Shown here: positions 7,701-13,435 of the stretch, in pieces
Layout: the number at the start of each line of letters is the position of its first letter
Position numbering within the stretch: the first letter of the stretch is position 1
Virus record (IMG/VR): IMGVR_UViG_2872192773_000002
DNA: 13,435 bases
From: a virus
Lineage: Duplodnaviria > Heunggongvirae > Uroviricota > Caudoviricetes
Direction: 5' to 3' (one strand)
Made by a program: the position numbers

Positions 7701-10700
7701 TAGAAATTGTATTCATAAATGACGGAAGTAAAGATGCCACAGAGTCAATTATTAACGCGCTGGCTGTTTCAGACCCGCTAGTTGTTCCGCTGTCATTTAC
7801 ACGCAACTTTGGTAAAGAACCAGCCTTATTTGCAGGGTTAGACCATGCAAGCGGCGATGCTGTAATTCCTATTGATGTCGACCTGCAAGACCCAATTGAG
7901 GTTATCCCTCATCTTATTGAAAAGTGGCAGGCAGGTGCTGAGATGGTGCTTGCTAAACGTTCAGACCGCTCAACTGATGGACGACTGAAACGTAAGACAG
8001 CTGAGTGGTTCTATAAATTACACAACAAAATAAGCACCCCAAAGATCGAGGAAAATGTCGGAGATTTTCGACTCATGTCTCGTGAGGTTGTGGAGAACAT
8101 TAAACTGTTGCCTGAGCGCAATCTTTTCATGAAAGGCATACTGAGCTGGGTGGGTGGTCAGACGGATGTCGTTGAATATGTACGCGCAGAGCGTGTTGCT
8201 GGCATCTCAAAATTTAATGGCTGGAAATTATGGAATCTGGCACTGGAAGGTATCACAAGTTTTTCAACCTTTCCTCTTCGCGTATGGACTTATATAGGCT
8301 TGTTTGTTGCAAGCATTTCATTTTTATATGGTGCATGGATGATTATAGACACCCTTGTCTTTGGTAACCCAGTACGCGGGTATCCCTCCCTGCTTGTATC
8401 AATACTTTTCTTGGGTGGAGTGCAACTGATCGGGATTGGTGTTCTCGGTGAATATATAGGTAGAATTTACTTAGAAACAAAATCAAGACCTAAGTATATT
8501 TTGAAGAAAGGTAGAAAATAACCATGAGCATATGTATTAAACAATCAGCATTAAAAATATTATTGGCTTTATCAGCACTCCTAATAACTTGGTTGACTAC
8601 CAGATACTTTCCAGTTGAACCGGATGTTGCTAACAGCCCAATTGTATGGAGGCATATTTTAGAGAATGGTATATCATCAATCCACGACTGGAAACCAACC
8701 GTGGATAATTGGTATTTCACCGTTTACCCAATTAACTTTTTATTTTATATGCTGTTAGGTGATGATGGCTTAGTAGCATTAAGATTATCAACTGCAGTTT
8801 TCTCTATTGCTATAGTAATAGCAGCGATGTTAACGCTACGTAAGGCATTCGGGTTTACCCCTGCTTTATTTTCTATTATACTTCTATCTCTAATACCATA
8901 TTTTTCATACACTTATGGTTTTGTATCACATCCTTTTTCTCATAATTCAACAAACGCTTTCGGCTTTTTATGCTTGCTTATATCTGTTTTCAACATACAG
9001 TATAAAAATATATTTATCACTCTCCTCTTAAGTTTGACAGCATTATTTTCCAGCGTATCCGATCCGTGGTTTACAGCTGCATTTTTTATTCCACTATTAA
9101 TATCTTACTTTTTATTCTCTGTATGGGATAAAAAATTATTTAAGCATACTGCATTAATACTATTTGCATGTTTAATCTCTCTTTCCAATGTATTGCAAAA
9201 TCTACTTAACATACCTCCCCACCAATTTGAAATTGTATCACTCAATGATATGATTTTAAATGCAAAATGGTGCATTCTGTTAATAGGAAAAAGTCTTAAT
9301 TTATTAGTTGTCGACAATAACGCAACATCTTACGCCTCATTTGTCATTTGGTTCATTGCCATTATTACATCTGCGTGGTTTGTTTTATCGGACAATAAAA
9401 AAAACACATACCGTATTTATATTGTGTTATTTTCATTATTATCTATCGCAGGTATTGTCTCATCATTCATACTGAGCTATAAATCCCCTGATTATATTAG
9501 CATGCGTTTCTTTATGAATGTTACCTGTTTCGCACTGATATTGTGCTGTATCGGTACATCAACAAAAGCAAAGATATTATTTTATCTAATCGCATTTTTA
9601 TTTTCGATCAGTTCAATTAAATCTTACACAAATAATGCTTCACCATTACACGATCAGGAGAAGATTGTTAAATCATACATTGATTTTTTAAAAAAAAATA
9701 ATCTCCATTATGGGTACGGCTCTTTTTGGGATTTGTCAATGACTGTAAATTGGTTATCTGGTGGGGACATACAGATAACTCCTGTTTTCTTTAATGCTGA
9801 TTCGGGGAAAATTAACTTTACTGGCGTGAGACAACAGACACTGGCTTCTTGGCATAGCAAGGAGGCGTTCAATTCTGCTCCTGAGCGACAGTTTATAGCA
9901 GTTTCCATAGCTAACGAACCTGAACGATGTAAAGAAATGACATCCTGCCTTGCAGGTATTCAAGAACAATTAGGTAAGCCTGACGAAGTTTTGAACTTTG
10001 AAGGAAGAGTAATATTAGTATTTAACAAAAAACTTAACCTATAGTAAATTGCCCCCTACCATATAAACCACACTAACGAATGAATAACCCGTCTTTTTCG
10101 ACGGGTTATATCCCTATCAGGAATAAAAATGGAGTGGTTGCCGTATACAACAAACCCTCATTTAGAGCTATATTCTAGAGTATATGAGATACTATAAAGT
10201 TGAAGGAGCTATCATTAGAAAAACCATATGCTGTTATAATTAGATGTCTCGCTTTTCATCCAATAACGAATTTTCTCTTATAGATTGCTCTCTGGTTTTT
10301 TCGGCCACTCTGTATTTTTTATATCAACACGCATCAATAGTGCGCGATATTTTTTCCATGCCAGTAACAGTTTCGTTTCATCATCTGTTGCCATATCTAA
10401 ATCAACCGCATCCTGAAGCGGCGCTATTACATTCGTTGCCTCTGCTATCAGTGCAGATTTCTTTTCATTATTTATTAAGGCTAATTGTTCTGGTGTTGGA
10501 GAAGGACGGTCAACAATGACAGGGTGACCATTCTCACCACAGGTAATCATTTTTGTTACACTCTGCGAATTAATCAGTGTTTTCCACTCTGATTCCGAGA
10601 TTTCCACTGCATCATCAGGAATATTGGTGCCGTGAAATTCAGTCGAATAAAATCCGTTTGTCGATGCAGAATAAAAATATGACATTTCGTTAATATCCCA

Positions 10701-13435
10701 TTGCAATGTAATACGCATCAGCAGATGAACCATATCCTGAACCGGGCGACACTGTAATATCAAATCCAGTGTTCTGGACATTTGTCGCCGATACAGTCGG
10801 CTGCCCTGACGCGCCAGTAACGTTCAATGTAACTGTGACAGCAAGGACTCTTGAGAATGTCATCGGGAACCTCATCCCGTATGTTGAAGATACATTAGGG
10901 GAGCCATTCAACTGACCGCACTGTAAAATTAATCCAGACGGAAATTTTTGCGCAGCAGCCGTTGCGGTATTACTTGACGCGAACAGGCTCATATCAGGTA
11001 TCTGATTCGCCCCTGTACCTACATTCCTTTTAGCTGCTTCTCCCAAACCAAGGTTTTCGAGAGCCGTTTTCACCGTGCCATCCGATTTGATATCGCCAAA
11101 CGGATTCTTGCGGCTTAACAGCAGCGCGCGAAGTGCGGTAAGCAACTGATCGTGCCGCCCCTTCTCCAGGCTGGCACCGGATGCCTCCACCACGCTGCAA
11201 AGTGAGGTAGCCTGAGTTTAACGGACACTCCTTCCTGAAATAGAATGGCATCAGAAGGAGCTAATAATGAGCAGAAAAACCCAACGTTACTCTAAAGAGT
11301 TCAAAGCCGAAGCTGTCAGAACGGTTCTTGAAAATCAACTTTCGATCAGTGAAGGCGCTTCCCGATTATCTCTTCCTGAAGGCACTTTAGGACAATGGGT
11401 TACCGCCGCCAGAAAAGGGCTCGGTACTCCTGGTTCCCGCACGCTGGCTGAACTGGAATCTGAAATTCTGCAACTGCGTAAGGCGTTAAATGAAGCTCGC
11501 CTTGAGCGCGATATATTAAAAAAAGCAACAGCGTATTTTGCACAGGAGTCGCTGAAAAATACGCGTTAATCGAACAATGGCGACAACAATTTCCCATTGA
11601 AGCGATGTGTCAGGTATTTGGTGTATCCAGGAGCGGTTATTACAACTGGGTACAGCATGAACCCTCAGACAGAAAACAAAGTGATGAGCGGCTAAAACTG
11701 GAGATTAAGGTGGCACATATCCGCACTCGCGAAACATATGGAACCCGGCGGCTCCAGACGGAGCTGGCAGAGAATGGCATCATCGTTGGTCGTGACCGAC
11801 TGGCACGTCTTCGTAAGGAGCTGAGGCTACGCTGTAAGCAGAAACGCAAGTTCAGAGCGACTACGAACCCGAACCACAATCTGCCTGTTGCGCCAAATCT
11901 GCTGAACCAGACGTTCGCTCCTACAGCACCAAATCAGGTCTGGGTGGCGGACCTGACGTATGTTGCCACACAGGAGGGATGGTTGTACCTCGCTGGTATC
12001 AAAGATGTTTATACGTGCGAAATTGTCGGCTACGCCATGGGAGAGCGCATGACAAAAGAGCTGACAGGTAAAGCCCTGTTTATGGCGCTCAGGAGCCAGC
12101 GCCCACCTGCCGGGCTAATCCACCACTCTGATCGAGGTTCACAGTACTGCGCATACGATTACCGGGTCATACAGGAGCAGTTTGGTCTGAAAACATCAAT
12201 GTCGCGTAAAGGTAACTGTTACGACAACGCTCCGATGGAAAGCTTCTGGGGAACGCTGAAAAATGAGAGCCTGAGCCACTATCGTTTTAATAACCGGGAT
12301 GAAGCCATCTCAGTAATACGGGAATACATTGAGATTTTCTACAATCGTCAGCGTCGTCACTCTCGTCTGGGGAATATCTCCCCGGCAGCCTTCAGGGAAA
12401 AATATCATCAGATGGCTGCTTAAAAAAAGAACAAATGGTAGTGTCCGCTATTGCCAGTACACCTCATGGCTCGAAGAGAAAGCACATAAGAAATCACTGG
12501 ACGATGACAAAAGCCGGATCGGATTCTGGCTTCAACATTTCGCAGGGATGCAACTAAGAGACATCACTGAATCAAAAATTTATTCAGCAATGCAGAAAAT
12601 GACGAACCGGCGTCATGAGGAAAACTGGAAACTCAGGGCAGAAGCATGCAGAAAAAAAGGGAAACCTGTTCCAGAATACACGCCAAAACCAGCGTCCGTT
12701 GCAACGAAGGCTACGCATCTTTCATTTATAAAGGCCCTACTAAGAGCCGCAGAGCGTGAATGGAAAATGCTGGATAAGGCACCAATTATTAAAGTGCCTC
12801 AACCAAAGAATAAACGGATCCGCTGGCTGGAGCCCCATGAAGCACAAAGGCTGATTGATGAATGTCCGGAGCCATTAAAGTCTGTTGTTGAATTTGCACT
12901 GGCAACAGGCTTAAGACGCTCGAACATCATCAACCTTGAATGGCAACAAATAGATATGCAGCGCCGGGTGGCATGGATAAACCCGGAAGAGAGTAAATCA
13001 AACCGCGCAATTGGCGTTGCGCTGAATGATACTGCATGTCGCGTATTGAAAAAACAAATCGGGAATCATCACCGTTGGGTATTTGTGTACAAGGAAAGCT
13101 GTACCAAACCAGACGGAACGAAAGCGCCAACAGTAAGGAAGATGCGGTATGACGCAAACACAGCCTGGAAAGCGGCGCTGAGACGGGCTGGTATTGATGA
13201 TTTCAGATTTCACGACTTGAGACACACCTGGGCAAGTTGGCTGGTTCAAGCCGGAGTCCCGTTGTCAGTGTTACAGGAAATGGGAGGCTGGGAGTCTATC
13301 GAAATGGTTCGTCGATATGCTCACCTTGCACCTAATCACCTTACCGAACACGCACGGCAAATAGACTCGATCCTGAACCCATCGGTCCCAAATTTGTCCC
13401 AGTCAAAAAATAAGGAAGGTACTAATGATGTGTAA

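Follow-up and report, generated by a model that had tools for sequence, protein, structure and literature searches.

A cryptic SfI prophage remnant beside thrW in Shigella flexneri serotype 1, very probably cut by an IS600-associated deletion

The 13,435-nucleotide viral stretch analysed here (IMG/VR record IMGVR_UViG_2872192773_000002; hereafter, the window) very probably carries the thrW-proximal portion of the cryptic SfI prophage found in serotype 1 strains of Shigella flexneri (the gtrI segment of the SHI-O island), cut by a deletion associated with the insertion sequence (IS) IS600. The arrangement of the locus is already known, as the cryptic SfI prophage at proA in strains Y53 and Y394.

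Compared by megablast with phage genomes, the window matched phage SfI (JX509734 / NC_027339) at 99.9% identity over positions 6977-11202 (4 mismatches in 4,226 bp; SfI 21294..17069), and the SfI integrase gene at 98.9% identity over positions 12467-13435 (11 mismatches in 969 bp; SfI 22259..21291). The matches are near-identical over kilobases and are no chance resemblance. The reference used, JX509734, is the complete annotated genome of a phage inducible from the serotype 1a strain 019. Alignment to such a complete genome, proposed as a check by the first-pass annotation of the window, defined 5,191 bp of the 38,389-bp phage as kept and 33,198 bp as absent and replaced by IS600, so that the serotype-converting prophage is indeed reduced to the gtr operon and stubs, as that annotation had claimed. 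Kept are the attP core, gtrA, gtrB, gtrI, the tail-fibre-assembly gene (tfa), the last 170 codons of SfI_0023 and int codons 66-387, all in the gene order of SfI, which is annotated as xis, int, attP core, gtrA, gtrB and gtrI, followed on the opposite strand by SfI_0024, SfI_0023 and the baseplate and tail genes. As in an SfI-type prophage, gtrA-gtrB-gtrI lie directly beside the attachment (att) site. Gone are xis, the first 65 residues of Int, the immunity genes and all replication, lysis and virion genes. Since the full set of SfI functions (xis, immunity, replication, lysis, head and tail) is absent, the region is a cryptic remnant and not a functional SfI-type prophage. At the protein level GtrI is identical to that of SfI, and GtrA, GtrB, the assembly protein, the tail-fibre fragment and the integrase fragment differ by one residue each. 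Listing of open reading frames (ORFs), Pfam scans and repeat finding reproduced the features of the window.

The SfI sequence breaks off on both sides of one IS600 copy (copy 2). On the gtr side, the tail-fibre-assembly gene, a homologue of SfI_0024, is full length (10278..10781, minus strand; 167 codons, the same length as SfI_0024; PF02413 Caudo_TAP, E=6e-27), in agreement with the intact Tfa first described. It is joined by a 3' fragment of the tail-fibre-like gene SfI_0023 (10690..11202, minus strand; PF21882 Gp53-like_C), whose breakpoint was set by junction alignment. The last 170 codons or so had been recognized as all that was left of this gene; the full gene has just 216 codons, so only the first 46 are gone at the IS600 junction. 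On the other side lies a 5'-truncated tyrosine integrase gene of the SfI/SfII/SfIV/SfV family (12467..13435, plus strand; SfI int nt 196-1164), and the window ends on its stop codon. Its first 65 of 387 codons are deleted, and the missing N-terminus had been correctly noted. The integrase keeps its whole catalytic domain (PF00589, E=3e-47 across the entire profile), with the HxxR and catalytic tyrosine regions, including RYAHL and a second motif of 10 letters, and this domain aligned with those of HP1 and Xer in a solved-structure search.

Copy 2 itself is a complete IS600 of 1264 bp (11203..12466, plus strand) and sits between tail fibre and integrase, as first annotated. Its orfA (11267-11569, 100 aa) and orfB (11605-12423, 272 aa) are both intact and carry the HTH_Tnp_1 and rve domains of an IS600 (IS3 family) element, and the IS600 of the window is 99.6% identical to elements annotated as IS600 on S. 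flexneri virulence plasmids. A further copy at 5358-6621 (copy 1) has the same length and differs at four positions (99.68% identity when aligned with flanks). The bases next to copy 2 are AAG towards the tail-fibre fragment and TGG towards the integrase, with no 3-bp target duplication; copy 1 is flanked by GTC and GGG, and no duplication was obtained from its own flanks or from any cross-pairing of the flanks of both copies. By contrast, IS600 simply inserted in another Sf-type int (loci L012, L013 and L015) is flanked by the 3-bp duplication AAG|AAG. With this control carrying a duplication and copy 2 lacking one, copy 2 does not represent a simple insertion and marks a rearrangement; its missing duplication points to rearrangement after insertion rather than to an element outside IS600. 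Both 60-mers spanning the copy 2 junctions were identical in seven distinct genomes, which is consistent with a single ancestral event.

The sequence beyond the window was followed in two genomes, CP097828.1 and LR213452.1, which are 100% identical to the window and whose loci were reached by exact GtrI protein look-up. In both, an intact tRNA-Thr(CGT) gene, thrW, starts 15 bp past the int stop codon and is followed by proA, proB, phoE and crl. A tRNA scan of the window itself found none, thrW lying just outside. A 46-bp att core at 6995..7040 (minus strand) matches the published SfI attP/attL/attR core exactly and equals the 3' end of thrW; it occurs once in the window (zero occurrences expected) and forms the junction of the SfI remnant on its left side, by gtrA. 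In the genomes that are 100% identical to the window, thrW contains the core once more, again as an exact copy. The remnant therefore sits where an SfI-type prophage does, in thrW by proA with the core at both ends. With both site-specific junctions present and host DNA bordering the element, the sequence beyond the window holds no intact prophage. Such a prophage had been named as an outcome that would overturn the first interpretation, and it is excluded by thrW 15 bp on, with proA and proB behind it.

The undeleted state of the locus is provided by an intact gtrI prophage of Escherichia coli YZ22MPE54, integrated at thrW in the same orientation. Its order is yagP, att, gtrA, gtrB, gtrI, tfa, tail fibre, Mu-like baseplate, sheath and tube, head, terminase, lysis, Q, replication, repressor, bet/exo, xis, int, thrW and proA, and the positions matching the two breakpoints of the window lie 32,995 bp apart. 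This spacing, the alignment to SfI and the lack of a target duplication at copy 2 together support the IS600-associated deletion that the first-pass annotation had put forward. Two of its accompanying statements hold in part. The label P22-like applies to the int, attP and gtr module only: the virion genes of SfI are Mu-like and SfV-like and encode a contractile tail (sheath, tube and baseplate J being Mu-like), and its early region is lambdoid. Likewise, the tens of kilobases said to separate integrase and tail fibre are real on one arc of the phage map (33 kb), but on the circular map the two genes are only ~4 kb apart through attP and gtr.

Several observations weigh against this interpretation. 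The integrase fragment is more diverged from that of SfI-019 than the gtr segment is (11 of 969 versus 4 of 4,226 positions; Fisher p=6e-6), and its exact counterpart (100% identity) is the int of a degraded thrW prophage of E. coli SCU-118 that has no gtr genes; a single-phage origin of the two fragments is therefore unproven. The missing 33 kb might in principle have moved elsewhere in the genome instead of being lost. In addition, no deletion intermediate was found: the viral and metagenome contigs searched held no IS600 with a 0-6 bp duplication at these positions in an otherwise intact int or SfI_0023.

If the two fragments do come from different phages, the integrase stub and the block of gtr, tfa and tail-fibre sequence might derive from two tandem thrW prophages, most of both having been removed by one IS600-associated deletion across their junction. 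The integrase fragment is closer to SfIV and phi458 (99.5-99.6% identity), besides its full identity with SCU-118, than to SfI-019 and the YZ22MPE54 gtrI prophage (both 98.9%), whereas the gtr block is 99.9% SfI. The locus already holds the remains of at least two other thrW phages, and experiments in Sun et al. 2011 (PMC3306764) have shown that Sf phages can integrate in tandem at thrW. However, 10 of the 11 integrase differences from SfI are synonymous, and int alleles throughout the Sf family differ by no more than about 1.3%, which makes the allele a poor guide to origin. Such alleles do occur on gtrI phages: the intact gtrI prophage of E. coli Br_178_kylling has an int that is 99.5% identical to that of the window and is annotated under the protein accession of the SCU-118 allele. 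The tandem arrangement is also less parsimonious, as it needs a deletion of ~70 kb that removes a second gtr cluster as well, and we consider it unlikely; a mosaic SfI variant would be the simplest source of both stubs. An unrelated origin of the integrase and tail-fibre fragments, which the first-pass annotation had named as a possible refutation, is likewise made improbable by the Br_178_kylling int, although the difference in identity to SfI between int and gtr remains.

The two other explanations considered concern the role of IS600. The prophage could have been deleted by a route independent of any IS, with IS600 inserting later by chance at the junction. The locus is crowded with insertion sequences, and each listed S. 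flexneri virulence plasmid has IS600 at 12-15 places, but a simple insertion should have left a 3-bp duplication, as it did in the control loci, in place of the AAG and TGG found here, and no locus compared had an IS-free version of the junction; a late insertion is extremely unlikely. We give next to no credence to the remaining option, in which both direct IS600 copies, together with the 4.58 kb that they enclose (integrase stub, att, gtrABI, tfa and tail-fibre stub), would have transposed into the locus as a composite transposon. Two IS600 copies in the same orientation and of such close identity do bracket the gtr block, and Adhikari et al. (1999) reportedly remarked on the composite-transposon-like look of the locus. 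Yet there is no duplication round the unit (GTC on the left, TGG on the right) and no second location for it was found, the IS600-bracketed block being seen in no other context; a single circular phage genome was the only entry of the plasmid collection with gtrI. Site-specific integration would leave exactly the inner att junction and the outer int-thrW junction that are observed, and IS600 copy 1 with the old integrase stub next to it is chromosomal backbone, found also beside other gtr types and beside an empty thrW.

The reading that we prefer, an SfI-type prophage cut by an IS600-associated deletion, suggests the following history. A complete SfI-type phage would have integrated by Int-mediated recombination of attP with thrW, landing next to an older prophage stub that consisted of IS600 and then an integrase 3' fragment. 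The order after integration would have been att, gtrA, gtrB, gtrI, tfa, tail fibre, ~33 kb of phage genes, xis, int, thrW and proA. A later IS600-associated event would then have deleted everything from tail-fibre codon 46 to int codon 65 and left one IS600 in place. Each of the two genes could have carried an IS600 copy, both in the same orientation, that recombined homologously; alternatively, a single copy could have given rise to an IS-adjacent deletion. We infer the order of events, the action of IS600 in either form and the loss of excision. The resulting remnant would be incapable of excision, replication and particle formation, with its gtrABI operon intact and type I O-antigen glucosylation thereby fixed in the chromosome.

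The loss of excision turns on the 65 missing residues of Int. In lambda-type integrases, the N-terminal ~64 residues bind the arm sites and are needed for attL x attR excision. The lost part of the SfI integrase is presumed to be this arm-binding domain by its likeness to residues 1-64 of lambda Int, and the window would thus have no counterpart of the N-terminal arm-binding domain of the heterobivalent P22/Sf thrW integrases. When full-length SfI Int was used as the query, no solved structure matched the lost residues and only the catalytic domain was matched, and a DUF6538 match on the full-length protein fell below threshold. By this analogy, the truncated Int would be unable to carry out attL x attR excision, and the element would be locked in place. 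A TTG-started ORF at 12329-13435 (plus strand) begins inside the right end of IS600 and reads in frame into int, with 46 IS-derived and 322 int codons. Its product, lacking the arm-binding domain like lambda Int C65, could affect the integration of incoming thrW phages, and because both att cores are kept, a superinfecting Sf phage supplying Int and Xis might excise the remnant or recombine with it in trans. It is highly unlikely that the remnant takes an active part in serotype switching in either of these ways; if it did, it would be more than inert debris.

Among known systems, the closest is the cryptic gtrI locus of Y53 and Y394, where gtrA-gtrB-gtrI likewise lie by proA, flanked by transposases and phage fragments and accompanied by no structural, replication or lysis genes. 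The att core reported for Y53 is that of the window, and no substantive difference from this published locus was seen. The primary description of the Y53 locus is that of Adhikari et al. 1999 (J Bacteriol 181:4711). Later papers assign the gtrI cluster to a cryptic SfI prophage located at proA and state that a partial SfI sequence was obtained from strain Y53. In Y394, a serotype 1c strain, the gtrI region is described as lacking structural, replication and lysis genes and as full of transposases (PMC5596473). In locus L012, an acyltransferase gene lies ~6.8 kb upstream of gtrA, which matches the distance described for oacB in Y394; in place of the oacB-bearing segment of L012, the window has IS911 and IS2. 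Compared with phage SfI itself, the window differs in the replacement of most of the genome by IS600 and in a slightly different int allele.

The SfII elements of S. flexneri 2a strains 2457T and Sf301, called prophage remnants in the literature, have the same left junction, with IS600, the old integrase stub, att, gtrA and gtrB. IS elements interrupt them too, and an IS600 lies shortly after their tail-fibre homologue of 216 codons (2457T/L019, AE014073.1 15559-16294; L015). They differ in carrying gtrII, a complete tail-fibre gene and an IS600 in the opposite orientation, and in an int end rearranged by inversion. On sequence comparison, their IS600 boundary is a parallel and independent one at nearly the same point of the phage map. 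CPS-53/KpLE1 of E. coli K-12 (intS-yfdG-yfdH-yfdI) is a further decayed prophage at a tRNA site that keeps an integrase and a gtrABC-type operon for O-antigen glucosylation; it differs from the SfI remnant in its tRNA site (argW), its integrase and its type gene. We know of no IS600 junction in CPS-53/KpLE1.

The gtr operon is complete. It comprises gtrA (7242..7604, plus strand; a flippase-type subunit of 120 aa; PF04138, E=1.7e-14), gtrB (7601..8521, plus strand; a bactoprenol glucosyltransferase of 306 aa; PF00535, E=3.7e-30) and gtrI (8524..10044, plus strand; the serotype-I-specific glucosyltransferase of 506 aa, 100% identical to SfI GtrI), all three intact. The SfI attP arm and the region upstream of gtrA (7041..7241, plus strand) are 99.9% identical to SfI and presumably contain the operon's own promoter. 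With operon and upstream region unchanged from SfI, type I glucosylation is predicted to be expressed like that of a lysogen. A consensus scan of positions 6900-13435 gave no more promoter-like sites than chance would (14, against 15.1 expected); the terminator-like sites of this interval, although enriched, were uninformative. The G+C content is 30-37% in gtrI and the following spacer (window 8500-10500) and about 50% in the flanking phage and IS DNA. The low G+C content of gtrI likely indicates a foreign origin of the type-specific gene.

In E. coli, the gtrI-tfa-tail-fibre block was found at an identity of at least 99.9% in 3 of 5,426 complete genomes. Apparently complete gtrI-bearing SfI-like prophages at thrW are present in NZ_CP139337.1 (L023), NZ_CP182383.1 (L009/L024) and NZ_CP047594.1 (H121), with a block that is 99.9-100% identical to the window; their sources are pork, the Brazilian isolate Br_178_kylling (source unrecorded) and faeces. 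These prophages indicate that the serotype-I conversion module of Shigella circulates in E. coli. A 41.7-kb circular record of S. flexneri 1a strain 0228, named 'plasmid unnamed' (NZ_CP012733.1; L025), contains the entire genome of a lambdoid gtrI phage, arranged in vegetative order (int, att, gtrA, gtrB, gtrI, tfa). In its baseplate and tail module this phage is unlike SfI and resembles L006, and the record is probably an excised or replicating phage.

To the left of the SfI part, the window carries older remains. IS600 copy 1 (5358..6621, plus strand, the orientation of copy 2) belongs to the conserved S. flexneri backbone beside the att site of thrW and not to SfI. It is followed by the last 119 codons of an older integrase (6622..6994, plus strand), which abuts the att core. 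This stub is 99% identical to the mEpX2/HK75/SfX type and only ~80% identical to SfI int, and it is present beside an empty thrW, so an SfI origin was rejected for it. The IS600 copy and the stub occur together in the same place beside gtrII (2457T), gtrIV and other gtr clusters and at an empty thrW-proA site; as older host backbone shared by several serotypes, the pair was likewise rejected as a part of SfI. The legend of Fig. 2 in Sun et al. 2011 (PMC3306764) gives the same host features as those of the copy 1 locus. The att site is a hybrid, with a left arm from the older prophage and a right arm from SfI: identity with SfI starts at 6977, and that with the mEpX2/HK75/SfX type runs to 7040. 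Copy 1 has an invariant right junction in all serotypes compared, and its left flank differs in 2457T and L020, indicating that IS600 copies at this locus recombine repeatedly.

A fragment holding xis and two early ORFs (3243-4007, minus strand) lies between IS911 and IS629 and is 99.6% identical to SfIV, 99.3% to SfV and 99.1% to SfII. In L012 and L015 it remains attached to an int of its own, into which an IS600 with the AAG duplication has inserted. Given this different int allele and a poor match to SfI, the fragment was rejected as a displaced piece of SfI. It is the remnant of a third thrW prophage, and the window therefore holds the remains of at least three. The surrounding dense IS cluster (window 307-5319) consists of IS2 (about 307-1637), IS911 (1993-3243) and IS629 (4002-5319), in which orfB appears split into ORFs at 4050-4718 and 4580-4936. 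Deletion and inversion between elements of this cluster were seen in L004 and L011. At the left end, positions 1-300 (minus strand) hold a fragment of an FHA-domain gene (weak FHA match) of the kind associated with type VI secretion systems, and related loci have TssE, TssF and ImpE nearby. By these neighbours, the IS cluster abuts a type VI secretion remnant in this lineage; in other S. flexneri strains it abuts yaiC/adrA.

The position of the gtr block between direct IS600 copies 4,581 bp apart should cause short-read assemblies to break there. In line with such breaks, the longest contig was only 2-5 kb in 1,244 of the 1,671 collection blocks with exactly this GtrI. Recombination between the two copies would be a predictable route to the loss of serotype I. 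Through this locus, type I modification of the O antigen is fixed in the chromosomes of S. flexneri serotypes 1a, 1b and 1c, which is relevant to the stability of serotypes, to molecular serotyping by gtrI and to the design of O-antigen vaccines. It involves no new biology and represents a case of IS-driven prophage decay in Shigella.

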